Assembly (NCBI GenBank): GCA_963837925.1
Contig: CAWIPK010000003.1
Location: 1,358,441-1,422,440, forward strand
Source: an uncultured Chloroflexia bacterium
GTDB taxonomy: Bacteria; Chloroflexota; Anaerolineae; CG2-30-64-16
Reading direction: 5' to 3'
Length of the DNA: 64,000 nt
This document shows positions 23,801-38,440 of the stretch, piece after piece. The notes beneath the pieces were generated by a model, which saw nothing but the letters and a program-made list of their open reading frames with translations, was not told the DNA's origin and searched no databases. Each line of letters begins with the position of its first letter. The first letter of the stretch is position 1. A program made the translations under genes and the position numbers.

Positions 23801-23904
23801 ACTTGCTGGAGGCGCCGTTGGCCGTGCTGGCGCCGCAGAGAGATCGGCTGAAGCTCGAGTTCGCGCCGTTCGAGATAAAGACGCTGCGCCTGGAAATGGC
23901 ATAG
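20820..23904 (+). pseudogene. GH38 alpha-mannosidase gene interrupted by a +1 frameshift near 21397-21402 (either a real pseudogene or an assembly indel)
   Basis: ORF 20820..21590 (frame 3) is a GH38 N-terminal region ending ...LLDFLSTLPPELTP. ORF 21487..23904 (frame 1) continues (open upstream to 21376) ...PRYEQVLTGLNDAL...AVGHAHMDLGWLWPVRETIRKSARTF plus the full catalytic and C-terminal domains. The combined product is ~1028 aa, typical for bacterial GH38. The junction lies in a CACCCC run. Confidence 0.8.
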
Positions 23905-23951: not shown

Positions 23952-24012
23952 TGCCACGTTCCGGCGGCGGGTCGTCTGCCACCGGCCAAGCAACGAGGTG
24001 AAAGGATCGAAG

Positions 24013-25296
24013 ATGCAACGGAAGGTGATCGTGGCCGGCGCAACGCTGGCTGCTCTCCTGCTGATGACACGCGTCATCAGCGGACTTGACAGCAGCGCCG
24101 CCCGCCCCCCCCTACCGGCACCGGCGGTCATCGCTCAGGCTGCCCAACCGGCAGCCGCCCCACTCGCGACCGCAGACCACTCCTCCGCCGATACTCGCCA
24201 GCCGGCCGCACGACGGCAGCCTGGCACGACGGCCCTTCCGGTCTTGCACGGCTCTGCGCCCGCAGCCGGTAAGCTGGTCGCGCCTCTGGCGTCCCAGAGT
24301 AACCCAGCCGCGCCTGCTTCCCGGCCGGCCAACGAGCATTCGGCGGCCAGTCGGAATACATCGAGCGCGGCGCTGACCGGCGCGGCGCAGGGTCCCGCGC
24401 TGCCCGTTGCCGAGGCCGAGAACGAATCGGGGCAGGGGGCGGCAGCGGAGCCGGCCGCAGCCGCCAGTGCGCCCACGCGGCACGCCATCGCCATGGTAGG
24501 GACCGGAATTCTACCGGCCGTGGCATCGGCCCCGGCTCTGGACAGGCCTATCAACGGGATCCCGGTGGAAGCCGTCCTGGTGCTGCCCGACAACGTGAAG
24601 GCGAACGTGCGTGAGATCTATGCCAGGGGTCAGCGCATCGGCCGCGACCCGCGCGCCTTCTCCAAGATAGGCGACAGCACGATGGTCTGGCCGGCCTTCA
24701 TGTCTGCCTTCGACTGGGGCTACAACCTGGGGCCATATTCCTACTTGCAGACGGCGATCGGGCAGTACGCCGGGTCGTTCAGCCGGGTCAGCTTGGCCGC
24801 CGTCAAAGGCATCAACTCCTGGCGCCAGTTTGACCCGGGCTCCGCCGACCTGCAGTACTGCCGTTCGAACGAGGGGCCTGTGCAGTGCGAGTTCCGGCTG
24901 CACAACCCAAGCATCGTCTTCATCCGGCTGGGCGCTAACGATTGGGGCGAGCCCGGCGAGTTCCAGCAAAGCATGGAACGGATCGTCGAGTACTTCCTGA
25001 ACCGGGGTGCTGTCCCCGTGTTGGGCACCAAACCCGATCGCCTCGAGGGCCCTGACAACACGCTGAATAAGATTGTCGGCCAGATCGCCGCCGAATACGA
25101 GATCCCGCTCTGGGACTACGACCAGGTGGCCGCGACCGTGCCGAACCGGGGCCTGCTGCCGGATATGACTCACTTCCAGGACGGCGGCCCGCACAACTAC
25201 TCTTCGCCCGGCACGTTCCAACATGGAGATTCGCTGGAGGACCTGACCGCCCTGATGATGTTGGACGCACTCGACCGGATCATCGCGGCCGAGTAG
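24013..25296 (+). CDS. Secreted/membrane-anchored SGNH (GDSL) hydrolase with a long Ala/Pro-rich linker
   Basis: N-terminal TM/signal (VIVAGATLAALLLM), then a ~150-aa low-complexity A/P-rich region. The SGNH domain carries block I FSKIGDSTMVW and a DxxH-like C-terminal block. Confidence 0.7.
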   Translation: MQRKVIVAGATLAALLLMTRVISGLDSSAARPPLPAPAVIAQAAQPAAAPLATADHSSADTRQPAARRQPGTTALPVLHGSAPAAGKLVAPLASQSNPAAPASRPANEHSAASRNTSSAALTGAAQGPALPVAEAENESGQGAAAEPAAAASAPTRHAIAMVGTGILPAVASAPALDRPINGIPVEAVLVLPDNVKANVREIYARGQRIGRDPRAFSKIGDSTMVWPAFMSAFDWGYNLGPYSYLQTAIGQYAGSFSRVSLAAVKGINSWRQFDPGSADLQYCRSNEGPVQCEFRLHNPSIVFIRLGANDWGEPGEFQQSMERIVEYFLNRGAVPVLGTKPDRLEGPDNTLNKIVGQIAAEYEIPLWDYDQVAATVPNRGLLPDMTHFQDGGPHNYSSPGTFQHGDSLEDLTALMMLDALDRIIAAE

Positions 25297-25359: not shown

Positions 25360-26709
25360 TCAGGGCGCGCTGACAGCGGCGGCGATCAGAGCGGCGTAGG
25401 CGGCGGCTCCGGCGGGCCGAAGGTGTATCCCGTCATCCCAGAACCACTCCGGATGCCGGCTGCCGGCTGCGCTCCAGTCCACAAGCACGGCGCTCGGGTA
25501 GCGCTTGATTCCCTCGGCCAGCACGGTATCGTTGGGAGCCTCCCAGACGCGCGGCACCCTGACATTCACGAACACCACCCGTCGCTGTCCCTGCAGAACC
25601 TGCATCATCTCGTCGAACTGGCGAGCGCTGAAGGTGCCATTGGTCCCCAGGTGCACGATCACCACGCCGCCTAGCTGGCCGGCCGCCTTGCGCTCCTCCA
25701 GCACCTGGATCGAGGGTGTCACCTGCCGGCTGACCGCGGCGTCGACGTGCAGGTGCGGGATAGCGGCCATCAGTTCAGGGACGGCGCCGACCATCACGGA
25801 GTCGCCGATCGCAAACACGCATTCCGCACAAGCGCCGTCAGTCGCCGAGACCGTGGCCGTAGGCGTCGCCGAGGCGGCCAGGGCGCCGGGGGGCGGCCGC
25901 GGCTGCCAGGAACGGCGCAGCCTGGCACTGCCCCCCGCCGGCCCGGCCAAGGGGCCGGCTGCGGACGGCATCGGAGCGGTCGCGTAGGGTGTCGGCGGCG
26001 CAGTCGTGCGAGGCGGCACTGAGGCAGTCGCCGAAGGCGTCAGCGGTAGAGTCGCCGCAGGCGTCAGCGGGCGACCGGCCATTACGCCCACGGAAGCCGC
26101 GTCCAACTGGGGCAGGAACGCTGAAACGGCGGTGCATACCTGAGGGGGATAGGCCGGCGCGCAGCGCGCCAGCAAGCTGCGGGCGGAGCTCAGGATCGCA
26201 CGGGGGTCGGGCGTGGGCGGCGGCTCAGCTGCCTCTGCAGGGGCTGGGGCAGCTGAGGCCAGTCCTCCCGACCTCGAGCTCGGTCCGCGACCGGCGCTGT
26301 ACGGGCTTTCGTCGGCGGTCTGGCCCGAAAGCGGGCCGGCTGCGACCGGCGGGTGAGGCGTGGCGTCGGCGGCGCCGGCACCTGAGGGCGCCATAGAGGC
26401 CCCCGTGGAAACCGCTCCCCGCTCGCCGGTCAGCTCGACTTGCATGATCGCTGCCGGCAATTGCACGCCAGGCGCTTCGCTCGCCTGGGTGTCGATCGAC
26501 GGCACGGCCAGATAGGCAGGGGGTGGAGGTAGTTCGGCCGCCGCCACGTTAGCGATCAGCAGGCCGCCGCAGCCAAGGACGACGGCGGTCGCGCTGCGCC
26601 GGCCGCCTGCGAGGCGCCAGCGTCGCACGCCTGATGCCGCACGGACCGTCGCCCCAGGCCCGGCTGGCCGCGGCAGTGACGATGAGCATCGCCTCGCGCC
26701 GGCGGACAA
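25360..26709 (-). CDS. SGNH hydrolase domain protein (last TM helix, Pro/Ala-rich linker and SGNH domain), probably the surviving C-terminal part of a decayed AT3-SGNH (OafA-like) acyltransferase
   Basis: Block I FAIGDSVMVGAVPEL, block III VVIVHLGTNG and block V DDGIHL. An N-terminal TM helix (ATAVVLGCGGLLIANVAAA) precedes a ~200-aa P/A/T-rich linker. The exact start is uncertain. Confidence 0.6.
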   Translation of the reverse strand: MSAGARRCSSSLPRPAGPGATVRAASGVRRWRLAGGRRSATAVVLGCGGLLIANVAAAELPPPPAYLAVPSIDTQASEAPGVQLPAAIMQVELTGERGAVSTGASMAPSGAGAADATPHPPVAAGPLSGQTADESPYSAGRGPSSRSGGLASAAPAPAEAAEPPPTPDPRAILSSARSLLARCAPAYPPQVCTAVSAFLPQLDAASVGVMAGRPLTPAATLPLTPSATASVPPRTTAPPTPYATAPMPSAAGPLAGPAGGSARLRRSWQPRPPPGALAASATPTATVSATDGACAECVFAIGDSVMVGAVPELMAAIPHLHVDAAVSRQVTPSIQVLEERKAAGQLGGVVIVHLGTNGTFSARQFDEMMQVLQGQRRVVFVNVRVPRVWEAPNDTVLAEGIKRYPSAVLVDWSAAGSRHPEWFWDDGIHLRPAGAAAYAALIAAAVSAP

Positions 26710-27038: not shown

Positions 27039-27521
27039 TTATGCGTTCTCGCGGTACGGATTGTCAAAGCGGAAGAAGTTGCTCTGATTGCCGTTCTTAA
27101 GGTTCTCCTGGTACAGAAAGACCAACTGGCGATCGTCGAACGTCTTGAACCACTGGTCCCAGCTCACTTCCTGCAGCCTATCACCCCCATAGCCCGGGAA
27201 GTTGAAGCGCAGGACGCCCAGGTGCTCGTCATGCTCGGTGCCCGGGACGGTGGCCGGCACCGCCCCTCGTTCTTCGGCCCAGTGCCGAATAACGTCGTGG
27301 CTGCGTGTCGCCAAAGACTGTCCTTTGTGATCCTGATGCTCGTCCGTGCTGCCGATCCACTTGGCGCGCTTGGTGGAGGCAGACAGCTTGTCGCCGACCT
27401 TCTTCAGGTACTTTCGATCCTCGGCCGAGGCGTTCTGCCAGCGCTCGTTCGTGTCCGAACTGGCTTTGCCCTCCGACTTATCCTTTGACTGAGCCTTCGT
27501 GCTCGATTTGGTGTCGGCCAT
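27039..27521 (-). CDS. Hypothetical hydrophilic protein (Lys/Ser/Thr-rich N-terminus, conserved C-terminal region)
   Basis: ATG at M122 of ORF 27039..27884 with GGAGGG RBS. Sequence MADTKSSTKAQSKDKSEGKASSD...FNFPGYGGDRLQEVSWDQWFKTFDD. Its own ~200-bp upstream region has lower GC. Confidence 0.45.
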   Translation of the reverse strand: MADTKSSTKAQSKDKSEGKASSDTNERWQNASAEDRKYLKKVGDKLSASTKRAKWIGSTDEHQDHKGQSLATRSHDVIRHWAEERGAVPATVPGTEHDEHLGVLRFNFPGYGGDRLQEVSWDQWFKTFDDRQLVFLYQENLKNGNQSNFFRFDNPYRENA

Positions 27522-27723
27522 GCAGTTCCCTCCGATATCCGCCCGGCACGCGCTTACCGTGGCAAGCCGCCGTATGCTGGCCGGGCGCTGAGATCGATAG
27601 GCGCCGGTGAGCGCATATCCATCTTCAATCTTAACGGAGAAGAGACCAACAGCCTGTAAGGTAGACAATAATCTTTGGTATACGCAGGGTCCCAAGGGAA
27701 CCTGAAGCCTCGGCAGCAGCCGG

Positions 27724-28581
27724 TCAGAAACCGCGCAGGACGGTGCTTTCGCGCCTGGGCAGGCCTTTCTTTGGGGTACGTTTGAGGACAACGTATTGCA
27801 GGCCGTGCTCAAGGCAAAAGGCGCGCTTCTCGGGCCTGTCACCGTCCTCGTTGACGGCGTAGATGTCCGGCTTGAGACGCTCAATGTCGGGCGCGGCGTC
27901 CATCCAGCCCTGGCCGGAGGTGATCAGCGCCTGTTTGACGAAGCGGATCGCGCCGGCCATGTAGCGCCGCTCCGCCTGCGGGAACAGCGGATGGCCCTCG
28001 CCCTTCAGATAGCGGACACTGGCGTCATTGCCGACCGCCACGTACAGGTCTCCGAGCGCCGAGACCTCCTCGAAGAACCGAATGTGGCCGGAATGGAGCC
28101 AGTCAAAGCAGCCGGTGACGAAGACTTTTTTCCGATCGCCCGGACCGGACACCATGGCGGCGCCGGAGTCAGAGGGGAACCCGGCCACGTCGCTGGCGCT
28201 CACGAGGTGGTGTTCGATGCCCTGGGCACGGCAGAAGGCGTGCCGGCGCGCGCCGGCTTCAGCGTGCGCCGCAAATAAGAGCGCCGGCTCACCCTCGTCG
28301 ACGGCCCAGACTGACGGCCGCTCGCCCTCGATCGCCGGCAGACCAAAGCGATCCGGCGGGCCATTGACTGACCAGACCCGGTCCACAAAGCGAATCGCTT
28401 CCAGAAGGTAGCGGCGTTCGCTCTCCGGGAACCGCGGCGCCTGCCCCTCGAGCATGCCCACCGCAGCGTCGCTCCACAGCAGAACGTGCAGCGAATCGCC
28501 CCGGCGCCGAGCCTCCTCGAGAAAGCGCACGTGGTGGGAGCGGAGGTCGTCGAAACTCCCGCTGACGATGACGGTCCTCAC
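27724..28581 (-). CDS. Tandem cytidylyltransferase-like (CTP_transf_like, TagD/RfaE-domain-II-like) nucleotidyltransferase protein
   Basis: Two repeats each carry the (H/T)xGH nucleotidyltransferase signature: VIVSGSFDDLRSHHVRFLEEARRRG and VFVTGCFDWLHSGHIRFFEEVSALG. Both are followed by an RYxxxAIRFV-like segment. Confidence 0.7.
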   Translation of the reverse strand: MRTVIVSGSFDDLRSHHVRFLEEARRRGDSLHVLLWSDAAVGMLEGQAPRFPESERRYLLEAIRFVDRVWSVNGPPDRFGLPAIEGERPSVWAVDEGEPALLFAAHAEAGARRHAFCRAQGIEHHLVSASDVAGFPSDSGAAMVSGPGDRKKVFVTGCFDWLHSGHIRFFEEVSALGDLYVAVGNDASVRYLKGEGHPLFPQAERRYMAGAIRFVKQALITSGQGWMDAAPDIERLKPDIYAVNEDGDRPEKRAFCLEHGLQYVVLKRTPKKGLPRRESTVLRGF

Positions 28582-28582
28582 C

Positions 28583-29413
28583 TCACTCCTGCTCCTCGCC
28601 CAACCTGACGCTCACCCGCAGTGCGCCGGGCACGGGCTCCTCCGAGACCACGTACAGGTAACCGCCCCCACACCCAGAGTACATCGCGCCAGGATAGCGC
28701 GCCTGGTAGTAACCGAGCAGGCCGGCCAGGTCGACCGTGATGGACGGATGGCGGACGGTCTGCGGGAGCACGGCCGCCCAGCACTGCATGCACTCGTTGA
28801 ACGAGGCGCCCAGGGCTCGTGCGTCCCGCGCGAGGATGGCGGCGTAACAATCGGCCCCCGATCGACCCAGGCGGCGGATCCACTCAGAGTCAAGATTCTT
28901 GATTCCCAGGGGGTTGTAGCCGGACGGGCGCTGGTTGACGGGCAGCAGGTAGATGACTTCTTCAAGCCAGCGTGCTACGAGGGGATCGCAATTGGTCTCG
29001 ATGTGGACGGGAAAGAGCCCGCCCTCGTATGAATAGTCGTAATCCAGGCGGCTGATGCCCGGGTAGATCAGCCCGATCATGTCTTGCGATCCGGATGGTT
29101 CATGTGCGCCCTGGTTCTCGGCCAAATACAAGTCCCGGACAAGCCGCTGCGGGTCGCCGCGCGGGAGCTCCCCCTGCCACAGGGCGGCCGCCACGCGGCG
29201 GGTGCTGGTGCCGAGCCCACAGCGGTCCATGAAACGGCTGGTGGGCTGCAGGGCAACGGTGACCATCGAGCCGGTCGGACTTGGATTCAACCTGGAAAGG
29301 AACGGCTGGTCGATCCAGCCGCCGGCGAGGGCCATGCGGTAGGGCAATTTGCCGATCACATCGCTCAGCCGCGGTGGAGCGGCAGGTCCGGTCGCGGCGT
29401 TCAATGCGGTCAT
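28583..29413 (-). CDS. GHMP-family sugar kinase (HddA/fucokinase-like), 276 aa
   Basis: Motif I MALAGGWIDQPF, motif II CGLGTSTRRVAAAL (PxGxGLGSS-like) and motif III GAMYSGCGGGYLYVV. The gene overlaps or abuts both neighbours. Confidence 0.6.
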   Translation of the reverse strand: MTALNAATGPAAPPRLSDVIGKLPYRMALAGGWIDQPFLSRLNPSPTGSMVTVALQPTSRFMDRCGLGTSTRRVAAALWQGELPRGDPQRLVRDLYLAENQGAHEPSGSQDMIGLIYPGISRLDYDYSYEGGLFPVHIETNCDPLVARWLEEVIYLLPVNQRPSGYNPLGIKNLDSEWIRRLGRSGADCYAAILARDARALGASFNECMQCWAAVLPQTVRHPSITVDLAGLLGYYQARYPGAMYSGCGGGYLYVVSEEPVPGALRVSVRLGEEQE

Positions 29414-29416
29414 GTG

Positions 29417-30454
29417 TTAACTCACTGTGTGCTGGCCCGCCTTGCGGGCATAATACTGCTTCTCGATCCAGGCATAGGTCTTCGCCAGGCCCTCGTGGAA
29501 CGGGGTCGCCGGCTCCCAGCCCAACACCTGTTTGATGAAGGTGTTGTCGCTGTTCCGCCCGGCCACACCGCGCGGGGCACCCAAATCATACCTACGTTCG
29601 AGCTTGACTCCGCCAATTTCTTCGGCCAGGCTCACAAGCCCATCAACCGAGATCAGCTCGCTCGAGCCCAGGTTGATCGGTGTGGCTATCAACTCGTCGC
29701 AGTGCATAATCATGTCGATGCCGTACGTGCAGTCGTCGATATACATGAAGCTGCGCGTCTGCGTGCCGTCACCCCAGATGACGATCTCGTGCTGCCCCAG
29801 GTCCTTGGCGGCTATCACCTTGCGGCTGATGGCAGCCGGCGCCTTCTCACGACCACCGTCCCAGGTGCCAAACGGGCCGTACACGTTGTGGAAGCGGGCC
29901 AGGTGCGTCTCGAGATGCCGTTCCTCCCAATATTCCTGGCAGAAGATCTCGGACATCAGCTTTTCCCAGCCGTAGCCCCGCTCCGCCATCGCCGGGTAGG
30001 CGTCGGATTCCTTGAGGGCGCGCACGTTGGGGTCCTGCTGGAGTGTAATGTTGTAGGCGCAAGCGGAGGACGAGAAGAAGTAACGCTGGACACCGGCCTG
30101 GTAGGAAGCCTCGATTAGGTGAGTGTTGATCAGGATGCTGCGCAGGCATTCCACCCGATTGCGCTCGATAAAGCCCATACCGCCCATATCGGCGGCCAGG
30201 TTGTAGACCTCGACCGCGCCTGCCGCGGCGCGCACGCAGTTGGGGTACTCACTGAGGTCCAGGCAGAGGCTCTCGACACCCGGCAACCGTTGATACCACT
30301 GCGGCAGCGGTTTCTTGTCAACGGCACGAATGCGACTGAAGCCCTGGTCATGGAAGCGCTTCACCAGGTTGCCGCCGATGAAGCCACCGGCCCCGCCGAC
30401 GACGATCAGGTCGTCCTTGCCCAAAACGGTCTCTGCTGTCTGATTACGGCTCAT
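29417..30454 (-). CDS. GDP-mannose 3,5-epimerase (GME)-like NAD-dependent epimerase (SDR superfamily)
   Basis: GGAGGFIGGNL Rossmann motif, YNLAADMGGMGFI, catalytic YGWEKL (GME has YGLEKL), RFHNVYGPFGTWDGGREKAPAAISRK (GME RFHNIYGPFGTWKGGREKAPAAFCRK), WGDGTQTRSF and GVAGRNSDN (GME GVRGRNSDN). Collinear similarity to plant and bacterial GME is recalled from memory. Confidence 0.8.
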   Translation of the reverse strand: MSRNQTAETVLGKDDLIVVGGAGGFIGGNLVKRFHDQGFSRIRAVDKKPLPQWYQRLPGVESLCLDLSEYPNCVRAAAGAVEVYNLAADMGGMGFIERNRVECLRSILINTHLIEASYQAGVQRYFFSSSACAYNITLQQDPNVRALKESDAYPAMAERGYGWEKLMSEIFCQEYWEERHLETHLARFHNVYGPFGTWDGGREKAPAAISRKVIAAKDLGQHEIVIWGDGTQTRSFMYIDDCTYGIDMIMHCDELIATPINLGSSELISVDGLVSLAEEIGGVKLERRYDLGAPRGVAGRNSDNTFIKQVLGWEPATPFHEGLAKTYAWIEKQYYARKAGQHTVS

Positions 30455-30505
30455 GTGCTTGTCTCCTCCAAACGGGCCGGGATCGCCCGATCGCGGCCGC
30501 TCTTC

Positions 30506-31525
30506 TCATGTAGTTGCCCGGCTGACCGCGGCGCCGCTTGAGCGGCGGATGATCAACTCGACGGGCAGCACGATCTCTTGGTGCCCCGGCGGGGCGCTGC
30601 CTTCCAGGCGGCTGAGCAGCAGCTCGGTGGCCCGCTGTCCCATGGTGTAGGCGGGCTGGGCAGCGACGGTCAGGAAGGGATCCATGACGATCGCGGCCGG
30701 CAGGTCGTCAAAGGCCACCAAGGCAACATCTTCGGGGACCCGCAAGCCGGCCTGCCGCAGGAAGCGATAGGCTCCGATGGCGATGAAGTTGTTGGCGGCG
30801 AACAGGGCTGTAGGTCGGGGTTTCAGCGCCAGGGCCTGCTCAGCCATGACCTGGCCGCCCGCCTGAGTGTACTCGCCGAAGAAGACCAGGCGCGGGTCCT
30901 CGGCCAGGCCGGCCCCGGCCAACGCACGCCGGTACCCGGCCACGCGGTCGGCCGCGGTCGAGACATCCTCGGGACCGGCCAGGACGGCGGTGCGGCGGTG
31001 GCCCAGGTTGAGGAGCAGGCAGGTCAGATCGTAGGCGCCTTGCTCCGAGTCGCAGCGCACCACGTCTACGCCGCCCCCCGGCATACGACGATCGAGCACC
31101 ACCACGGGCACGGCCTGACGATGCAGAAACTCAATCGGCTCGGCGCTGCTGCGCGCCGGCACGAGCAGCACGCCGTCAGTTTGCTTCTGCGCGAGGATGT
31201 TGAGCTGCTCAGCCTCCTCCGCCGCAGACTCGTCGGTGTTGCAGAAGATGACGTTGAAGCCGTTCTCGCTGGCAACGTCTTCTACGCCGCGGGCGACCGT
31301 GGTGAAGAACGGGTTCGTGATGTCGGTTAGGATCAGGGCCAGCGTCTTCGTCTGCTTGAAGCGCAGGCTGCGGGCCAGGCTGTTGGGAACGTAGCCGAGC
31401 TCGGCAATGGCCTGCTCGACCCGCTCACGCGTTTCGGTGCTGATGTAGCCCGATCGATTCAGCACGCGTGAGACGGTCATCGTGGAAACGCGCGCTCGCT
31501 CGGCTACGTCACGGATAGTGCTCAT
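30506..31525 (-). CDS. LacI-family transcriptional regulator
   Basis: N-terminal HTH MSTIRDVAERARVSTMTVSRVLN plus a periplasmic-binding-fold sugar-binding domain. It lies 52 bp upstream of the epimerase gene on the same strand. Confidence 0.85.
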   Translation of the reverse strand: MSTIRDVAERARVSTMTVSRVLNRSGYISTETRERVEQAIAELGYVPNSLARSLRFKQTKTLALILTDITNPFFTTVARGVEDVASENGFNVIFCNTDESAAEEAEQLNILAQKQTDGVLLVPARSSAEPIEFLHRQAVPVVVLDRRMPGGGVDVVRCDSEQGAYDLTCLLLNLGHRRTAVLAGPEDVSTAADRVAGYRRALAGAGLAEDPRLVFFGEYTQAGGQVMAEQALALKPRPTALFAANNFIAIGAYRFLRQAGLRVPEDVALVAFDDLPAAIVMDPFLTVAAQPAYTMGQRATELLLSRLEGSAPPGHQEIVLPVELIIRRSSGAAVSRATT

Positions 31526-31688
31526 CCTACCAATACCTGTCGCTAGCCGGCGCATGGCCGTACGCCGGTATGAATGATCGCCAACGGGCTTGAACGGCCC
31601 GGCCAGCAAATCCAGCCGCGCGAGCGCACCGCGATGTACACGCACGCACGGTGTCTCGATTCAGCCCCCCCATAGAGCGCTGGCGGCG

Positions 31689-33176
31689 CTACGAAACCAG
31701 CTTCAGCACGTAGGCATGCTCACAGGGCCTCCGGTCGGGCAGGCGCACGACCAGGCCTTCCGCCGAACGACGCCAATCCAGCGGCCCATCATACCCCAGC
31801 AGCCTCACGGTCTGCAACTGCTCGGGGGCCTGCCCGCTGGCCAACGAACGGACGGTGAGCGTGCTGCCGGCGCCGGGCCAGGCCAAACAAATGGCGTAAA
31901 GGGTATTGTCGCGGCGGGTGAAGCGGAAATCCTGTGCAGTGAATGGCGCGCGCGCCGTATCCTTGAACTGTCCTTCCGGGACCTCGGTCGGCCCTTCGCC
32001 GAAACGCAGCCACGGCCGGGTGCCGTAGATCGCCTCGCCGTTCACGGCCAGCCAGCGTCCAATCTCCCGCAATACCGCCTGCTCGGGCTCGGGGATAGTG
32101 CCGTCCGGACGCGGGCCGATGTTGAGCAGCAAGGCGCCGTTCTTGCTGACGACGTCGACGAGATCCTGAACCAGCCACTCGGCGCTCTTGTAATCCTGGT
32201 CCGTGACGTAGCCCCAGGAATTCTTGGAAATCGAGGTATCGTTCTGCCAGAAGAGCGGTCGGATATCGTTCAATTGGCCGCGTTCCAGGTCGAGCACGGC
32301 GGCACCGGTGGGGAAGGCGCTGAACTTGTAGTTCACGGCGACGCCCTGGCCCCACTCCGCCCCACGATTGTAGTAGTAGGCGGCGAACTTTTGCAGATGC
32401 CCCGCAGCCGTAAACGCCCGGTGGCCGATCCACCAGTCGAACCAGATCAACTGCGGCCGGTACTTGTCGACCAGCTCACACGTGCGCGCTAACCAGTCGT
32501 TCAGATGCTCCGCGCTCGGATCGGGAAGGCAGTCCAGATCGTGCTCGCGACCGTCCTCGATGACGACGGCCGGACCGTAGAAGTCCTGCGTCTGCGGGTC
32601 CTGCACGTCTGAAGGGAACTTGCGCCCACCGTTCATGAACCACCAATGCTCCGCCCGATGGCTGGAAAGGCCGAAGACGAGGCCCGCCTCGCGCGCGGCC
32701 GCCGCCAGCTCGCCGACGACATCGCGCCTCGGCCCCATCTGGGCCGCCGTCCAGCGCGAGAAGCTGCAGTCATACATCGCAAAGCCGTCGTGGTGTTCGG
32801 CCACCGGCACCACGAATTTGGCGCCGGCCTGGCGGAACAAGTCCACCCACGCGGCCGGGTCGAAGTGCTGGGCGCGGAACTGCGGGATAAAGTCCTTGTA
32901 GCCGAATGCCGTGAGCGGGCCGTAAGTCGCTACCTGGTGCTCGTACTCGGGCGTGCCTTGCAGGTACATGTTGCGCGGATACCATTCACTGCCAAAGGCC
33001 GGCACGCTGTAGACTCCCCAGTGGATGAAAATTCCGAACTTGGCGTCCTGATACCAGTCGGGCACCTGGTAGGCACAGAGCGAGTCCCAATTTGCCGCAT
33101 ACGGGCCGGCGACGACGCCTTCCTCGACGCGGCGGAGAGCGGCGTTGACCTGCGCGACAGTGGCTTGCGAATCCAT
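31689..33176 (-). CDS. GH29 alpha-L-fucosidase (family members can also act on alpha-L-galactosides)
   Basis: AKFGIFIHWGVYSVPAFGSEWY, FVVPVAEHHDGFAMYD and WFDWWI are the GH29 catalytic-domain hallmarks. ATG at M14 of ORF 31689..33215 with a GAGGAG RBS. Confidence 0.9.
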   Translation of the reverse strand: MDSQATVAQVNAALRRVEEGVVAGPYAANWDSLCAYQVPDWYQDAKFGIFIHWGVYSVPAFGSEWYPRNMYLQGTPEYEHQVATYGPLTAFGYKDFIPQFRAQHFDPAAWVDLFRQAGAKFVVPVAEHHDGFAMYDCSFSRWTAAQMGPRRDVVGELAAAAREAGLVFGLSSHRAEHWWFMNGGRKFPSDVQDPQTQDFYGPAVVIEDGREHDLDCLPDPSAEHLNDWLARTCELVDKYRPQLIWFDWWIGHRAFTAAGHLQKFAAYYYNRGAEWGQGVAVNYKFSAFPTGAAVLDLERGQLNDIRPLFWQNDTSISKNSWGYVTDQDYKSAEWLVQDLVDVVSKNGALLLNIGPRPDGTIPEPEQAVLREIGRWLAVNGEAIYGTRPWLRFGEGPTEVPEGQFKDTARAPFTAQDFRFTRRDNTLYAICLAWPGAGSTLTVRSLASGQAPEQLQTVRLLGYDGPLDWRRSAEGLVVRLPDRRPCEHAYVLKLVS

Positions 33177-33256
33177 CTGCGATGCTCCTCTCAGATTCGG
33201 GGGCGGGACCAACAATCAAAGCCGCGCCCACAGTCAGCAGGCGCCGGCCTCGAGAT

Positions 33257-33272
33257 ATGTTACGCATAACAT
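33257..33272. promoter_or_regulatory. Near-palindromic 16-mer ATGTTACGCATAACAT, a candidate LacI-family operator in the divergent fucosidase/ABC intergenic region
   Basis: TGTTACG/CATAACA half-sites resemble the TGnnAnCGnTnnCA pattern of LacI-family operators. A TATAAT (~33373) and TTGACA (~33407) lie downstream towards the ABC operon. Confidence 0.3.
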
Positions 33273-33472
33273 AGCACGCGGGCGGGGCTTTGTCAAACCG
33301 AGAAGGGTGCGCGCCTGCGCTGAAAGCTCTCACAGGAGAACTCTGCCCCTGTTCAATCTGGGCTGTTGTGCATATAATACTTCTGCAAGTTTCTCACAAC
33401 AAAACTTTGACAAGTACCCTGAATTCAGAGCAGCGAGCGTCGAGGGCTGCCTGACGGCCGCCGCGGGCCCGG

Positions 33473-34981
33473 ATGCGGGGGAGTATGAGCCAGAGCGACC
33501 ACAACTTGAAGCTGACTAACATCAGCAAGAGCTTTGCCGGGGTGCACGCGCTGCGGGGCGTCCATCTCGAGCTATGTCCAGGCGAGGTGCACGCGCTGCT
33601 GGGTGAGAACGGTGCGGGCAAGTCGACGCTGGTCAAGGTGATGACCGGGGTACACCGGCCGGACAGCGGTGAAATCTACCTGGACGGCGAACGCATCGAG
33701 CTGACGGAGCCACGCCAAGCGACGGAGCGCGGCATCTCGGCGATCTACCAGGAGCTGAGCATCTTCCCCGACCTGGATATTGCCGAGAACATCTTTATCG
33801 GACGGCAACCCACGCTGGCGGGCGGCCTGGTCGAGTGGGGCAAGCTATATCGCGATGCGGAGCGCTTGCTGGGAGCACTGGGCGTGCGCATGAACGTGAG
33901 GACCAAGGCGCGCAGTCTGAGCGTCGCCCAGCAGCAGATGGTCGAGATCGCTCGCGCGCTTTCGGTGAACGCGCGCGTCCTGATCATGGACGAGCCGACC
34001 TCCGCGCTGACCCTGAACGAGGTGGCGGATCTGTTCCAGATCGTGCGCCGCCTGCGCGCGCAGGGGACGGCGGTCCTTTTCATCTCGCACCGGCTGGAGG
34101 AGTTGTTCGAGATCGCGGACCGCGTCACCGTCCTGCGCGATGGGGCGTACGTCGACACGCGCGCGATGGACGGTGTGACCAAGGACGAGCTGATCCGCAT
34201 GATGGTCGGCCGGCCCGTCGACGAGCTTTTCCCGAAGACCGCTGCTGCACCGGGGGAGGTCGTGCTGCGGGTCAACGATCTGGCGCGCAAGGGCGCCTTC
34301 CGCGGTGTCTCCTTTGAGCTTCACAAGGGTGAGATCCTGGGCATGGCCGGCCTGGTGGGCGCCGGGAGGACCGAGGTCAGCCAGGCGCTGTTCGGGGTCG
34401 CGCCGGCCGATGCCGGGACGATCGAGATTGCGGGGCAGGCCGTGCGCATCGCGAACCCGCGCCAGGCCATGCGGCTGGGCCTGGCGCTCGTGCCCGAGGA
34501 CCGGCAGCATCACGGCCTGGTGCTGCCGATGGATATCACGGACAACGTGGTCATGCCGGTGCTCTCGCGCTTCACCAGGCATGGCTGGGTAACGGCAAGC
34601 GGAGCGCGCCGGGCAGCCTACGAAGCCGCGGCGCAGTTGGAGGTCAAGGCGACGAGCGTGTGGCAGAGAGTGCGCGAGCTGTCTGGCGGGAACCAGCAGA
34701 AAGTGGTTCTGTCCAAGTGGTTGACCACCCGGCCGCGCATCTTGATCCTGGACGAGCCGACACGCGGGATCGACATCGGAACGAAGGCTGCGGTCCATAA
34801 GCTGATGAGCGATCTGGCAGGCCAAGGGATCGCGATCCTGATGATCTCCTCGGAGCTACCGGAGGTCCTGGGGATGAGCGATCGCATCCTGGTGATGCAC
34901 GAGGGCCGGGTGACTGGCCTCTTCAGCCGCAGCGAAGCAACGCAGGAAGCGATCATGAGGGCCGCCACGCAAACCGCCTGA
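33473..34981 (+). CDS. Sugar ABC transporter ATP-binding protein (CUT2 family, duplicated ABC domains; RbsA/MglA/RhaT-like)
   Basis: Two Walker A sites (GENGAGKST, GLVGAGRT), two LSGG signatures and two Walker B motifs in 502 aa. Confidence 0.9.
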   Translation: MRGSMSQSDHNLKLTNISKSFAGVHALRGVHLELCPGEVHALLGENGAGKSTLVKVMTGVHRPDSGEIYLDGERIELTEPRQATERGISAIYQELSIFPDLDIAENIFIGRQPTLAGGLVEWGKLYRDAERLLGALGVRMNVRTKARSLSVAQQQMVEIARALSVNARVLIMDEPTSALTLNEVADLFQIVRRLRAQGTAVLFISHRLEELFEIADRVTVLRDGAYVDTRAMDGVTKDELIRMMVGRPVDELFPKTAAAPGEVVLRVNDLARKGAFRGVSFELHKGEILGMAGLVGAGRTEVSQALFGVAPADAGTIEIAGQAVRIANPRQAMRLGLALVPEDRQHHGLVLPMDITDNVVMPVLSRFTRHGWVTASGARRAAYEAAAQLEVKATSVWQRVRELSGGNQQKVVLSKWLTTRPRILILDEPTRGIDIGTKAAVHKLMSDLAGQGIAILMISSELPEVLGMSDRILVMHEGRVTGLFSRSEATQEAIMRAATQTA

Positions 34982-35006
34982 GGGGGCGTCCGAGCGGGAG
35001 AGAAAT

Positions 35007-36020
35007 GTGACCACCAGCGAAGTGACATCACCCAGGCGCAGCCTGGCAACGACCATCGCCCAGTTCAGGGAGCTGGCGCTCCTGGGTTTCGTTGGTCTGC
35101 TGATCGTCGTGATCGGGCTCCAGAGCCCCAGCTTCCTTACCCTGACCAACTTCAGGGATATTCTGCTGGACATCTCGATCCTGGCGATGATCGCCCTGGC
35201 CCAGGGCGTGACCATCATCACCCGCGGTATCGATTTGTCGGTCGCCTCGATACTGGCCCTGACGGCCATGATGGTCTCGTTCCTGATCCGAGCTTATCCC
35301 GAAACCCCGGTGATCCTCACCGTGCTGCTGGGCATCGGCATCGGCGGGGTGTTAGGCAGCCTCAATGGGATCATCATCGGCTTGGCCAACGTTCCGCCGA
35401 TCATCGCGACCCTGGGCACTTTGAGCGTTTATCGTGGCCTGGTTTTCTTGTACAGCAACGGCGCCTGGATCAACGCGTTTGAGATGCCTGAGAGTTTCAA
35501 GCAACTGGCCAAAGGGACACCCTTGATCCTCCCCAACCTGGTGATCGTCGCCATCGTCGTGGCGGTCATTTTCTACGTCTTCCTCAGGTACACGCGGCCG
35601 GGGCGCGACATTTATGCCCTGGGAACCAACCCCGAGGCAGCCGTCGTGGCGGGCATCCGCACGCGGCAGGTAACGTTCATGGTGTACGCCATCTCCGGCC
35701 TGGTTTGTGGGCTGTCGGGCGTGCTGTGGGCCTCGCGCTTTGAGGCTGCACAGACCAATACGGCGCTGGGGTTCGAGCTGCAGACCGTGGCAGCGGCGGT
35801 GATCGGCGGCGTGAGCATGCTGGGAGGGGTTGGCAGCGTGCCGGGCATGGTGCTGGGAGCGCTGATCTTGGGCATCATCCAGAATGGCCTGATCCTCTCC
35901 CGGATCTCTCCATTCTGGCAGTTGGCCGTGCAGGGATTCTTGATCTTGCTGGCGGTCGTCTCGGACGCATCAATACAACAGCGGATCAAGTCGACCGTAA
36001 GGCAGGGAATGGGCAAATGA
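35007..36020 (+). CDS. Sugar ABC transporter permease (CUT2, RbsC-like)
   Basis: Ten-TM permease with the typical CUT2 pattern IGGVSMLGG.G; overlaps the next gene by 4 nt. Confidence 0.85.
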   Translation: MTTSEVTSPRRSLATTIAQFRELALLGFVGLLIVVIGLQSPSFLTLTNFRDILLDISILAMIALAQGVTIITRGIDLSVASILALTAMMVSFLIRAYPETPVILTVLLGIGIGGVLGSLNGIIIGLANVPPIIATLGTLSVYRGLVFLYSNGAWINAFEMPESFKQLAKGTPLILPNLVIVAIVVAVIFYVFLRYTRPGRDIYALGTNPEAAVVAGIRTRQVTFMVYAISGLVCGLSGVLWASRFEAAQTNTALGFELQTVAAAVIGGVSMLGGVGSVPGMVLGALILGIIQNGLILSRISPFWQLAVQGFLILLAVVSDASIQQRIKSTVRQGMGK

Positions 36021-37132
36021 CAACCACGGAAGGAAAGGTTTCAGCCTCGCTCAGCCTCGCGCCGCCACACAGGTCGTTCCCGTCACGCTTTTTGCACTGG
36101 GAATGGTTCCTGGTGGCCCTGATTCTGGTGGTGGTCGTCGTCAACAGCCGCCTTTCGCCCTACTTTTTGGATGTCCGCAACCTGTTTCGAGCATCGGGAG
36201 ACTTCATGGAGATGGGCCTGATGATGCTGCCGATGGTCTGGATCATCGTCACGGGTAATGTCGACCTGGCGGTGGCCTCCACGCTCGGCATGACCGCCTC
36301 TTTCATGGGCCTGTTGTTCAATACTGGCGTCAACATCTGGCTCGCGGCGGCGGCTGCGCTGGTGTTGGGCGTCGTGGCGGGCCTGTTGAACGGCTACCTG
36401 ATCTCGCGCCTGCGCGTGCCGGCATTAGTGATCACGCTCGGCACCTACGCTTTCTACCGCGGCATGGCGTACGTCATGTTGGGCGACCAGGCCGCGCGCG
36501 GTTATCCGGCTTCTTTCACCTACATCGGGCAAGGGACCATCCCGGGGACACCGGTGCCATTTTCGCTGGCGCTCTTCCTGGTAATGGCAGTCATCTTCGG
36601 CCTGGTGCTGCACAAGACGGCCTTCGGCCGCTATCTGTACGCGATCGGCAACAATCAGGAGGCCGCGATCTACTCGGGCATCTCGGTGGCGCGCGTGAAG
36701 GTCATCATCTTCCTGGTCTCGGGGGCAATGTCGGCGCTGGCCGGGCTGGTCCTGGCGGCGCGCTACGGCAGCACGCGTCCCGATATCGGCACCGGCCTCG
36801 AGCTGGCGGTCATCACGGCGGCCGTGCTCGGCGGTGTGGATATCAACGGCGGCAAGGGCAGCATGATCGGGGCAGTGCTCGCGCTGCTGTTGGTGGGCTT
36901 GCTGCGCTTTGGTATGGGTTTGCTGAACGTGCAGGGTCAGGTACAAAGCATAGCCATTGGGGCCTTGCTGATCCTGTCGATCCTGTTGCCCAACCTACCG
37001 CAAATCGTCAGCGGCCAGCGATCACGGCTGAATGGCCGCGCGCTGGCCCTGACCGGCGTCGCGGTCGTCATCGCGATCGCCTTCGGGTGGTTGTTCTTCT
37101 GGTCGCGTGCCGTCGTCTTCTCAATATCCTAG
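36017..37132 (+). CDS. Sugar ABC transporter permease (CUT2, second subunit)
   Basis: Paralogous to the previous permease, with GGVDINGGKGS. Confidence 0.85.
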   Translation: MTTTEGKVSASLSLAPPHRSFPSRFLHWEWFLVALILVVVVVNSRLSPYFLDVRNLFRASGDFMEMGLMMLPMVWIIVTGNVDLAVASTLGMTASFMGLLFNTGVNIWLAAAAALVLGVVAGLLNGYLISRLRVPALVITLGTYAFYRGMAYVMLGDQAARGYPASFTYIGQGTIPGTPVPFSLALFLVMAVIFGLVLHKTAFGRYLYAIGNNQEAAIYSGISVARVKVIIFLVSGAMSALAGLVLAARYGSTRPDIGTGLELAVITAAVLGGVDINGGKGSMIGAVLALLLVGLLRFGMGLLNVQGQVQSIAIGALLILSILLPNLPQIVSGQRSRLNGRALALTGVAVVIAIAFGWLFFWSRAVVFSIS

Positions 37133-37249
37133 GCGACCGGCGCAGCGCATCCCGTCAGCTTAGGGAGGTGAGTCGATCCGAAAGCTCAGATTGTAGGAAC
37201 ATCGTGGTTAATTGTCTTGGACCATCTGCATGCCTAAGGGAGAAAAAAC

Positions 37250-38440
37250 ATGAAGAGCCGTTCAACCTTTGCGATCGTCGCCGCGGTACTGGTGCTCAGC
37301 ATGCTGTTGAGCGCATGCGGTCCGCAGGCGACTGCCGTTCCTGCGGCACCGGCGGCACCGGCGCCCGCAGCCACTCAACCGCCCGCGCCCACGGAGGCCC
37401 CTGCCGCCGCTCCCACGGAAGCGGCCGCGCCTACCGAAGCCGCCGCCACTGCTCCTACCGAAGCCGCCGCGCCTACCGAAGCCGCCGCGCCTACGGCAGC
37501 AGCCGCGCCGGCCGCATCTGGCGCCGGCAACGTGTACGTGTTGGTGCCCAAGAACCTGGGCAATCCCTACTTCGACACCGCCAACAAGGGTGCCCAGGAA
37601 GCCGCTAAAGAGCTCGGCGTGACCGTCAATTACCAGGGTCCGGCAACCGCGGATGCCACCCAGCAGATCCAACTGCTGAACTCGTTGATCGCGCAGAAAG
37701 TCAACGGCCTGGCCATCTCAGCAGACGATGCCGATGCGCTGGTGCCGGTGGGCAAGCAGGCGATGGATGCCGGCATTCCGGTGGTGACCTGGGACTCGGC
37801 GATCGCTCCCGCCGGTCGCACGGTGCACATCAACCAGGCGGTTGCCGCCGACATCGCGGCCATCCAGATCAAGATGGCCTCGGACCTGGCCGGCGGCTCG
37901 GGCAACATCGCCATCCTCAGCGCCACCTCCACGGCGCCGAACCAGAACGAGTGGATCGGCCTCATGAAGGAAGAACTGAAGAAACCCGAGTATGCCAACC
38001 TGAAGCTCGTGGATACCGTCTACGGCGACGACGAGGATACCAAGAGCTACAACGAAGCGCAGGGTCTGATGAAGAAGTACCCGGACCTGAAGGTGATCAT
38101 CGCCCCCACGACAGTCGGCATCGCAGCTGCCGCGCGCGCCGTGCAGGATGCCAACATGGTCGGGAAGGTGTTCGTGACCGGACTGGGGACGCCCAACCAG
38201 ATGCGCGACTACGTCAAGAGCGGCGCCGCGCCGCAATTCGCCCTGTGGAACCCATCTGACCTCGGCTACCTGGCCATCTACACATTGAATGCCATCGCCA
38301 CGGGCGAGATCAAGGGCCAGCCGGGCGACACGTTCACCGCCGGAAAGCTGGGCAAGTACACCGTCAACCCCGACGGCACGGTGCTGTTGGGGCCGCCGAC
38401 CGTCTTCAACAAGGACAATATCGACAACTTCAACTTCTAG
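37250..38440 (+). CDS. Sugar ABC transporter substrate-binding lipoprotein (CUT2, RhaS/LsrB/RbsB-like) with a repetitive Ala/Pro/Thr/Glu linker
   Basis: Lipobox LLSAC, a ~60-aa linker and a periplasmic binding fold (GNVYVLVPKNLGNPYFDTANKGAQEAAKELG). Confidence 0.85.
   Translation: MKSRSTFAIVAAVLVLSMLLSACGPQATAVPAAPAAPAPAATQPPAPTEAPAAAPTEAAAPTEAAATAPTEAAAPTEAAAPTAAAAPAASGAGNVYVLVPKNLGNPYFDTANKGAQEAAKELGVTVNYQGPATADATQQIQLLNSLIAQKVNGLAISADDADALVPVGKQAMDAGIPVVTWDSAIAPAGRTVHINQAVAADIAAIQIKMASDLAGGSGNIAILSATSTAPNQNEWIGLMKEELKKPEYANLKLVDTVYGDDEDTKSYNEAQGLMKKYPDLKVIIAPTTVGIAAAARAVQDANMVGKVFVTGLGTPNQMRDYVKSGAAPQFALWNPSDLGYLAIYTLNAIATGEIKGQPGDTFTAGKLGKYTVNPDGTVLLGPPTVFNKDNIDNFNF
37388..37495 (+). repeat. 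In-frame 18-bp tandem repeat array encoding (PTEAAA)n within the SBP linker
   Basis: The protein reads APTEAPAAAPTEAAAPTEAAATAPTEAAAPTEAAAPT. The nucleotide repeat is ccgaagccgccgcgccta-like, about 6 units. Confidence 0.5.

Follow-up and report, generated by a model that had tools for sequence, protein, structure and literature searches.

What role does a homolog of GDP-mannose 3,5-epimerase (GM35E) play in a bacterial operon that also encodes a glycosidase, a LacI-family repressor, and two further putative sugar-activating enzymes? This question is raised by a locus at approximately positions 27724–38440 of a 64,000-nt stretch of DNA from an uncultured Chloroflexia bacterium (contig CAWIPK010000003.1). 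The whole stretch is hereafter called the window, and its first letter is position 1. The minus-strand genes of this locus are transcribed in the order of GH29 (the glycosidase), LacI, GME (the epimerase homolog), KIN (a compact protein with the fold of GHMP kinases), and NT2 (a tandem nucleotidyltransferase), and the genes of a CUT2-type sugar ABC importer diverge from them, starting at 33473. An earlier note on this DNA had interpreted GME, KIN, and NT2 (hereafter the cassette) as a salvage route for L-fucose or L-galactose through nucleotide sugars. This interpretation is supported overall, and the evidence sharpens it towards L-galactose, namely the type of the GH29 enzyme and the neighboring genes for mannose-1-phosphate guanylyltransferase (ManC), phosphomannomutase (PMM), and phosphomannose isomerase (PMI). 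We regard the chances as about even that this is a LacI-repressed operon for the catabolism of L-galactose from alpha-L-galactosides, working as a pyrophosphorylase-type (Isselbacher-like) analog of the Leloir pathway. The identities of the genes at the level of family or fold, the gene order, the fusions between kinase-like and transferase domains, the shared operator, and the subtype of GH29 are directly supported by the comparisons presented below.

Conservation, fusions, and regulation of the cassette

Related loci were collected by a pattern scan of one genome per species, which gave at least 578 confirmed matches, and the best 80 were taken for comparison. Neighborhood counts are those from tblastn where these differ from the clusters of open reading frames (ORFs); crude ORF calling mis-assigned a few loci (e.g., L030). 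Homologs of KIN form more than 7,000 clusters at 90% identity, all of them unnamed, and those of NT2 form nearly 6,000 clusters named only 'cytidyltransferase-like', such that a chance pattern can be ruled out. The best 80 loci are from Chloroflexota (Anaerolineae and others), Planctomycetota, Acidobacteriota, Verrucomicrobiota, Latescibacterota, and a few other groups, and the core clade of KIN corresponds to one 50%-identity representative. Of the 78 loci with room for it, 64 have GME (72–93% identity) as the same-strand gene immediately upstream of KIN, and NT2 immediately follows KIN in 62 of 74 loci. The complete order of GME, KIN, and NT2 on one strand was found in 49 of the 70 loci with room on both sides, representing five phyla, and the triad is thus a conserved neighborhood, as the earlier note had anticipated. 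The nearest relative, an Anaerolineales metagenome-assembled genome (L004), has the same GH29-LacI-GME-KIN-NT2 order as the window. Across five phyla, KIN homologs are 65–82% identical, compared to 50–60% for NT2, which points either to an unusually strong constraint on KIN or to its being often transferred horizontally.

The genes that accompany the cassette are catabolic and regulatory ones, not those typical of lipopolysaccharide (LPS) synthesis. In 22 of 61 loci, the gene after NT2 is ManC (corresponding to the GMP portion of TIGR01479), and LacI orthologs (53–89% identity) flank the cassette in 28 of 82. In a census of the two ORFs on each side (251 ORFs, with the 25 commonest families in each of two lists), the upstream families include LacI (15–17 ORFs), AraC (7), GH29 (5), GH43, and FGGY kinases, and the downstream families include ManC (19; 19–23 loci overall), RbsD/FucU (6), LacI, CUT2 ATPases, MFS transporters, PGM_PMM (2), and PMI (2). 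No glycosyltransferase, flippase, polymerase, or heptose family (GmhA and GmhB) is present in the top 25 of either list; the LPS/heptose cassette that the earlier note had named as a possible refutation is not what the flanks contain. No gene of the HIT family (GalT) was found in the window operon or among the frequent neighbors.

Independent of gene order, a functional pairing of KIN with the transferase fold on a free sugar is supported by gene fusions. Among 35 long, more distant relatives of KIN, 24 have a CTP_transf_like domain at the N-terminus, in which the HxGH motif is intact, and GHMP_kinases_C (PF08544) is matched by three of the 35. One relative (P0296, 593 aa; L084:8001-12659) joins three domains, the first of the rhamnose-mutarotase family, the second cytidylyltransferase-like, and the third KIN-like. 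Its operon continues with genes for an MFS transporter and a GH29 fucosidase of the ordinary type, and the genome also encodes a protein with a Por_Secre_tail domain. P0296 looks like an L-fucose salvage enzyme distinct from the fucokinase FKP. In further matches (P0315, P0363, and others), KIN-like domains are joined to a GT2 glycosyltransferase, a TcdA/TcdB-like glycosyltransferase, or a PNP_UDP_1 phosphorylase domain. These fusions imply a wider, unstudied superfamily of sugar-activation modules.

The earlier note linked the triad to the flanking fucosidase gene and importer, and a LacI-type operator shared among loci supports this link. The putative operator is a palindrome, ATGTTACGCATAACAT (also written TATGTTACGCATAACAT), with no other match within the window. 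It is overlapped by the -10 hexamer of a predicted minus-strand promoter (TTGACA, a 17-nt spacer, and TATGTT with an upstream TG), which agrees with the consensus at 10 of 12 positions. The operator core TATGTTA-N4-TAACAT recurs in loci that have a LacI 69–89% identical to that of the window: it is found upstream of GH29 in L004, twice in the divergent region between LacI and GME in L050, and, in L031, twice upstream of GME and twice upstream of LacI. For the shorter TGTTA-N4-TAACA, eight of the nine matches in 1.31 Mb of loci are within cassette promoter regions, compared to about 1.3 matches expected anywhere by chance. These patterns support a regulatory tie between LacI and GME-KIN-NT2, which in the window would extend to the promoter region of GH29 and the importer. 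No operator was found in the 51-nt gap between LacI and GME of the window or upstream of LacI. The only operator of the window lies in the divergent region between GH29 and the ABC genes, such that transcription from the GH29 promoter probably continues into GME-KIN-NT2. A second inverted repeat (TACTTCTGCAAGTTT ... AAACTTTGACAAGTA) is located nearer to the ABC genes, and no conserved copy of it was found elsewhere.

Family and fold of the three proteins

The earlier note predicted that GME would be more than 40% identical to characterized GM35E, and the identity to the Arabidopsis enzyme (AtGME) is 42% over 316 columns. The solved plant GM35Es match GME at E=1e-74 (8sg0 and 2c59), whereas the next families (MoeE5 and GDP-fucose synthase) match at 1e-20; the protein groups with GM35E and not with GalE or dTDP-sugar enzymes. 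On the heptose 6-epimerase model it scores 44.7 bits against a cut-off of 274.6. The residues that define AtGME are the acid Cys145, the base Lys217, and Arg306, which acidifies the Cys, together with Ser143, Tyr174, and Lys178 of the SDR (short-chain dehydrogenase/reductase) fold (PMC8787198, section 6). All six are identical in GME, in which Ser130, Cys132, Tyr161, Lys165, Lys204, and Arg300 correspond to AtGME Ser143, Cys145, Tyr174, Lys178, Lys217, and Arg306, respectively. By its sequence, GME is a true GM35E homolog with a complete catalytic set. The GM35E reaction is reversible, with the equilibrium on the GDP-mannose side and unfavorable towards L-galactose (PMC8787198), and we propose that GME converts GDP-L-galactose to GDP-D-mannose.

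The earlier designation of KIN as a GHMP kinase stands for the fold but not for the family. KIN matches nothing in Pfam (E≤10) or NCBIfam (E≤0.01), and hence none of GHMP_kinases_N (PF00288), GHMP_kinases_C (PF08544), and Fucokinase (PF07959), the Pfam families that the earlier note had proposed as a check. An AlphaFold model built with 20 homologs (predicted local distance difference test, pLDDT, 76; predicted template modeling score, pTM, 0.78) clearly has the two-domain GHMP fold, and its Foldseek matches include the heptokinases WcbL and HddA. Sequence searches did not name KIN, and its GHMP membership holds at the level of the fold and through the distant fused relatives that match PF08544. 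HMMER aligns residues 585–608 of FKP with KIN 19–42, such that Arg26, Trp33, and Asp35 of KIN, all invariant in the 20 homologs, correspond to FKP Arg592, Trp599, and Asp601. In FKP, Arg592 contacts O1, Trp599 stacks on C4–C6, and Asp601 binds O3 and O4 of the sugar (PMC11982464). The candidate motifs C-G-M-G-T-S-T (65–71) and G-C-G-G-G-Y (247–252) of KIN are invariant or nearly so; the latter (candidate motif III) aligns with FKP 900–907, and the former (candidate motif II) is placed by its spacing to GSQD and not by an alignment. KIN also has an invariant G-S-Q110-D111, located 43 residues past the GMGTST loop, and an invariant Glu99. Judging from spacing and not from an alignment, GSQD appears to mirror FKP Gln761-Asp762 (45 residues past the phosphate loop) and Glu99 to mirror Glu751. 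The distance from motif I to motif II is 33 residues in KIN (35 to 68) compared to 116 in FKP (601 to 717), i.e., about 80 fewer. KIN is proposed to be an anomeric L-galactose (L-fucose-type) 1-kinase.

NT2 consists of two CTP_transf_like domains, as previously noted; PF01467 is matched twice, and each half alone passes the cut-off (41.5 bits for the C-terminal half and 23.6 bits for the N-terminal half). The C-terminal half is highly conserved and has an invariant HxGH motif (H163-S-G-H166), and the N-terminal half has R-S-x-H, thus failing the motif, and still holds ten invariant residues. The C-terminal half is therefore the likely catalytic one and the N-terminal half is likely degenerate. 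For the AlphaFold2 model of NT2 (pLDDT 88.6), the top Foldseek match is the tandem human ECT over the full length (TM 0.70–0.74), followed by the single domains of HldC and TagD. ECT (Pcyt2; PDB 3ELB and 4XSV) is the only solved tandem two-domain cytidylyltransferase. However, ECT is a eukaryotic enzyme that acts on phosphoethanolamine, its identity to NT2 is 19–20%, and its halves keep HYGH and HIGH, unlike the N-terminal half of NT2. Among curated models, that of rfaE domain II/HldC (TIGR02199) matches best; it describes a heptose-1-phosphate adenylyltransferase domain and thus a sugar-1-phosphate enzyme that shares the NT2 fold, but NT2 scores 98.3 bits, far below the cut-off of 181.5, and does not belong to this family. 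NT2 is proposed to be an L-galactose-1-phosphate (L-Gal-1-P) nucleotidyltransferase, perhaps a guanylyltransferase.

Candidate sugar, proposed route, and alternatives

The GH29 of the window matches the structures of BpGH29 (7LJJ, 7LNP, and 7SNK) at E=1e-148 with 48% identity, compared to 1e-80 for the best fucosidase. BpGH29 is the exo-alpha-L-galactosidase of the porphyran locus of Bacteroides plebeius (PMC12316285), and a recent screen reports that alpha-L-galactosidase activity is limited to a narrow GH29 clade (bioRxiv 10.64898/2026.05.19.726164). By sequence, the window enzyme is of this exo-alpha-L-galactosidase type, and the seven other GH29s adjacent to the cassette are all of the BpGH29 type (44–49% identity to BpGH29). 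L-galactose is favored as the sugar because of this GH29 type and the chemistry of GME, ManC, PMM, and PMI. In the single case of the GME-less fusion P0296, the adjacent GH29 is of the ordinary fucosidase type and is 24% identical to that of the window. No hydrophobic N-terminal segment is evident by eye in the window GH29, which is probably cytoplasmic and would act on imported small L-galactosides. The adjoining importer is of the monosaccharide (CUT2) type, unlike this predicted use of imported L-galactosides, and its ATPase scores near the models of xylose, ribose, and arabinose ATPases.

A complete route can be proposed from these genes, in which substrates, nucleotide, phosphoryl donor, and flux direction are all inferred. 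The exo-alpha-L-galactosidase would free L-galactose, or the importer would bring in the free sugar, and KIN would turn it into beta-L-Gal-1-P by phosphorylation at the anomeric hydroxyl. NT2, through its C-terminal domain, would then use an NTP, most likely GTP, to form GDP-beta-L-galactose and pyrophosphate (PPi), and GME would epimerize C3 and C5 to yield GDP-alpha-D-mannose, the side favored by the equilibrium. ManC running in reverse would consume PPi to release mannose-1-phosphate and GTP; this enzyme would be supplied by the operon in about a third of the genomes and, for the window, from elsewhere in the genome. PMM and then PMI would lead to fructose-6-phosphate, with a net cost of one ATP per hexose.

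The closest parallel is the pyrophosphorylase (Isselbacher) form of the Leloir pathway, which consists of galactokinase, UDP-sugar pyrophosphorylase, UDP-glucose 4-epimerase, and UDP-glucose pyrophosphorylase. A GHMP-fold anomeric kinase, nucleotide activation, an SDR epimerase, and the release of a hexose-1-phosphate with recycling of NTP and PPi would be common to both. However, the proposed route would have an L-sugar, a carrier that is probably GDP instead of UDP, a double 3,5-epimerization, and an activating enzyme of the HIGH/cytidylyltransferase fold instead of the NTP_transferase fold. The likeness holds for the pyrophosphorylase variant only, as the operon lacks the GalT-type (HIT) transferase of the classical Leloir pathway. 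The plant Smirnoff-Wheeler pathway has the same GME family and the same intermediates (GDP-mannose, GDP-L-galactose, and L-Gal-1-P). It runs from mannose through L-galactose to ascorbate by a HIT-family phosphorylase and a phosphatase, whereas the proposed bacterial route would run in reverse by a kinase and a nucleotidyltransferase. Compared to FKP, KIN is 16–18% identical with no significant match, and the transferase of the operon has an unrelated fold; moreover, FKP serves glycan synthesis and has no link to an epimerase. The D-glycero-D-manno-heptose systems (HldE and HddA-HldC) also place a cytidylyltransferase-fold sugar-1-phosphate transferase after an anomeric kinase, which is of the GHMP fold in HddA. 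However, NT2 is a tandem protein scoring far below the cut-off of their transferase, the SDR of the operon is not a heptose 6-epimerase, and the context is catabolic and not that of LPS.

In the literature searched, the catabolism of L-galactose in bacteria is described only through dehydrogenase routes, most recently in October 2025 (Bacteroides vulgatus and the lgu genes of Luteolibacter; PMC12632266). These oxidative routes have the same proposed nutrient. However, they proceed from L-galactose dehydrogenase through L-galactonate and D-tagaturonate to 2-keto-3-deoxygluconate (KDG), with no phosphorylated or nucleotide-bound L-sugar, and have no enzyme in common with the operon. The earlier note suggested that a Leloir-like route of kinase, transferase, and GME was undescribed, and the literature searched (mostly open-access) agrees with this: it contains no bacterial catabolism based on GDP-L-galactose, no L-galactokinase, no L-Gal-1-P guanylyltransferase, and no such combined route, although an earlier description is possible.

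With slightly less confidence than an even chance, the cassette (with or without ManC) may represent a widespread and unrecognized non-oxidative L-galactose route, in which an L-hexose is turned into a D-hexose phosphate at the nucleotide-sugar level by means of a minimal GHMP anomeric L-sugar kinase without the canonical adenine pocket and a tandem sugar-1-phosphate guanylyltransferase of the HIGH fold, and in which GME is catabolic, in place of or beside a role in LPS synthesis. If true, this would be a third and energetically cheap bacterial L-galactose route (one ATP, no redox step, and entry as mannose phosphate). It would also assign a physiological role to the GM35Es that are common in Chloroflexota, Planctomycetota, Acidobacteria, Verrucomicrobia, and Latescibacteria, which dominate polysaccharide turnover in soils, peat, and sediments. 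Two large families, of more than 7,000 and nearly 6,000 clusters, would gain functions in place of their present annotation as 'hypothetical' or generically 'cytidyltransferase-like'. Furthermore, thermodynamically favorable biocatalysts for making GDP-L-galactose, and L-sugars generally, from the free sugar would become available, which is a stated aim of recent GM35E engineering (PMC8787198).

Several observations weigh against such a route. KIN and NT2 are two uncharacterized enzyme families. To our knowledge, the characterized members of the NT2 fold include no guanylyltransferase, and GDP as the carrier is suggested by the neighboring genes alone. When KIN was searched against the PDB (phmmer and profile), the only matches were sub-threshold ones, all of them FKP (E about 0.1). 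The adenine pocket of GHMP kinases is the segment between motifs I and II, and that of FKP (Asp644, Met645, Pro666, and Ile669) has no counterpart in KIN, such that the use of ATP is uncertain. NT2 or GME is missing from some loci, the window operon has no ManC, and GH29 accompanies the cassette in only 8–9 of 82 loci. Most of the source genomes come from soil, peat, and groundwater, habitats with no obvious abundant source of L-galactosides. The binding protein of the window importer is of the rhamnose-binding type by sequence; it scores 430.2 bits on the RhaS model TIGR02637 (cut-off 342.25), and its best PDB match is the rhamnose-binding protein 4KVF (E=6e-92). A few KIN-like domains are fused to glycosyltransferases (GT2 and TcdA/TcdB-like), suggesting that the module serves glycan synthesis in those lineages. 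Finally, the reading of the RbsD/FucU-family neighbor after ManC as a 'FucU fucose mutarotase' was rejected; this protein scores as a ribose pyranase (80–94 bits on that model, cut-off 93), and the L-fucose mutarotase model was unmatched.

The enzyme set is direction-neutral, and it may instead supply the cell's own glycans, with KIN and NT2 salvaging L-galactose or L-fucose to GDP-L-galactose or GDP-L-fucose and with ManC and GME making GDP-L-galactose de novo. FKP of Bacteroides would be an analogous case, and the fusions of distant KIN relatives to GT2 or TcdA-like glycosyltransferases, as well as the GME-less P0296 beside an ordinary fucosidase, which resembles plain fucose salvage, are consistent with this explanation. 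Moreover, for the single bacterial GM35E characterized so far, a role in LPS synthesis was tentatively proposed by its authors (PMC6678494). However, the top-25 lists from the 251 flanking ORFs contain no glycosyltransferase, flippase, or polymerase family, and the adjacent regulators are of the sugar-responsive LacI/AraC type, with an operator that overlaps the promoter. In addition, PMM and PMI adjoin the cassette in a few loci, the equilibrium of GME favors GDP-mannose, and the operon is probably co-transcribed with a degradative exo-glycosidase. We consider anabolic supply to be unlikely.

Alternatively, the same architecture may act on another sugar (L-fucose, L-rhamnose, D-arabinose, or another), with the GME homolog acting on the matching GDP- or other NDP-sugar. 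The RhaS-type binding protein would fit this explanation, as would the presence of FucI, FGGY kinase, and FucU of L-fucose catabolism within 10 kb in 3–5 loci, the approximately 100-fold preference of FKP for L-fucose over L-galactose, the rhamnose-mutarotase-family domain of one fused relative, and the resemblance of a neighboring enzyme to ribose pyranase. However, 3,5-epimerization of GDP-L-fucose and GDP-L-rhamnose would give GDP-D-rhamnose and GDP-D-fucose, 6-deoxy products that appear to have no obvious catabolic exit, and it is only with a 6-hydroxy sugar that GME, ManC, PMM, and PMI add up to a coherent route. Furthermore, the GH29s linked to the cassette are all of the L-galactosidase type, and the one ordinary fucosidase is beside a fusion that lacks GME. 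A different sugar thus appears quite unlikely.

It is very unlikely that KIN is not a kinase, i.e., that it is a GHMP-fold protein of another activity or a non-catalytic partner of NT2 in a cassette that makes or remodels a nucleotide sugar in some other way. The missing adenine-pocket segment and the lack of a significant sequence match to any kinase family would agree with this possibility, and the GHMP fold also includes decarboxylases and the non-enzyme Xol-1. However, the phosphate-loop-like GMGTST motif, the GSQD motif, and the GGGY motif (motif III) are invariant or nearly so, the residues of the fucokinase sugar site are kept, relatives match GHMP_kinases_C, and the fusions to nucleotidyltransferase domains mirror the kinase-transferase pairs of FKP and HldE. 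An LPS or capsule cassette for heptose activation (HddA/HldC/HldD-like), unrelated to GH29 and the importer, to which rfaE domain II as the best curated model for NT2 and WcbL and HddA among the fold matches of KIN might point, is hardly credible and was rejected in view of the sub-cut-off scores of NT2 (98 bits vs. 181.5) and of the SDR, which is a GME (45 bits vs. 275 on the heptose 6-epimerase model), the catabolic flanks with no GmhA, GmhB, or glycosyltransferase in the top-25 lists, and the operator shared with the promoter region of GH29 and the importer.

Layout of the locus and its surroundings

The features of the locus are listed in Table 1. All nine ORFs of the earlier list were found at the coordinates and on the strands given there, and the Pfam matches agree with its naming of LacI, GH29, and the CUT2 importer. 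The GC content at third codon positions of these ORFs (0.81–0.86) is normal for coding sequences in a genome with 65% GC. Of the two gene junctions reported earlier, the 3-nt gap between GME and KIN is correct, and the supposed -1 nt between KIN and NT2 is really a 1-nt gap (TGA g GTG); a GGAG sits before the start of NT2. The helix-turn-helix domain of LacI begins at residue 43 of the 379-aa ORF, such that the true start is probably the ATG at 31525.

Table 1. Coordinates of the genes and sites in the window, and of RbsD/FucU-family genes in related loci.
Feature	Position	Strand	Basis
NT2 (285 aa; tandem cytidylyltransferase-fold/HIGH-type nucleotidyltransferase)	27724..28581	-	PF01467 twice
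KIN (276 aa; compact GHMP-fold protein of an uncharacterized family)	28583..29413	-	Fold match
GME (GDP-mannose 3,5-epimerase homolog)	29417..30454	-	E=1e-74 to PDB 8sg0 and 2c59
LacI-family repressor	30506..31525 (ORF to 31645)	-	PF00356 and Peripla_BP_1/3
GH29 glycosidase, exo-alpha-L-galactosidase (BpGH29) type	31689..33215	-	PF01120 (Alpha_L_fucos) and PF16757 (Fucosidase_C)
Putative LacI operator ATGTTACGCATAACAT, core TATGTTA-N4-TAACAT	33257..33272	unstranded	Palindrome
Sigma-70-like promoter of the minus-strand operon	33268..33296	-	Consensus match only
Second inverted repeat in the divergent promoter region	33378..33416	unstranded	15-nt arms, 80% complementary, 9 nt apart
CUT2 sugar ABC importer ATPase, two ABC domains	33473..34981	+	PF00005 twice
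CUT2 importer permease 1	35007..36020	+	PF02653 (BPD_transp_2)
CUT2 importer permease 2	36017..37132	+	PF02653 (BPD_transp_2)
Substrate-binding lipoprotein, RhaS (rhamnose-binding) type	37250..38440	+	Peripla_BP_4; TIGR02637
RbsD/FucU-family genes after ManC	L055:5107-5520, L060:12832-13239, L074:11621-12049 and others

Among the related loci, an RbsD/FucU-family gene occurs in 12 overall. From its sequence, the neighbor after ManC is described as a converter of the anomer or ring form of a free sugar, and it may belong to a third subfamily that has a sugar of its own. The L-fucose mutarotase model is matched, with 206 bits, by the FucU of L001, which is part of a FucI/FucK cluster. In 8 of 82 loci (e.g., L013:4742-5764), the cassette is flanked by a uroporphyrinogen-decarboxylase-like (PF01208) protein. 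The relatives of PF01208 include methyltransferases, and by analogy these neighbors might demethylate O-methylated sugars. The anaerobic demethylation of methyl-galactose is unsolved (PMC12316285). One Chloroflexia contig (CAVRUI010000003.1) has two cassette copies (L064 and L076) about 18 kb apart, of which one is LacI-GME-KIN-NT2-ManC with an importer and the other is GME-KIN only.

Within the window, an ORF at 27039-27884 (-) that matches no Pfam family shares sequence with the 3' end of NT2, and it is probably a small gene of its own that starts later; a promoter-like site (27067-27038) is located at its own 3' end. A GH38 alpha-mannosidase with all four Pfam domains is encoded at 20820-23904 (+), 4 kb past the operon, and its 5' end lies under a second overlapping ORF (20820-21590), indicating an ambiguous start or a frameshift. 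Between GH38 and the operon are two convergent ORFs that encode proteins with long Pro/Ala-rich N-terminal regions; the one at 23998-25296 (+) has a weak GDSL-lipase match under the Pfam cut-off, and the one at 25360-26709 (-) has no Pfam match.

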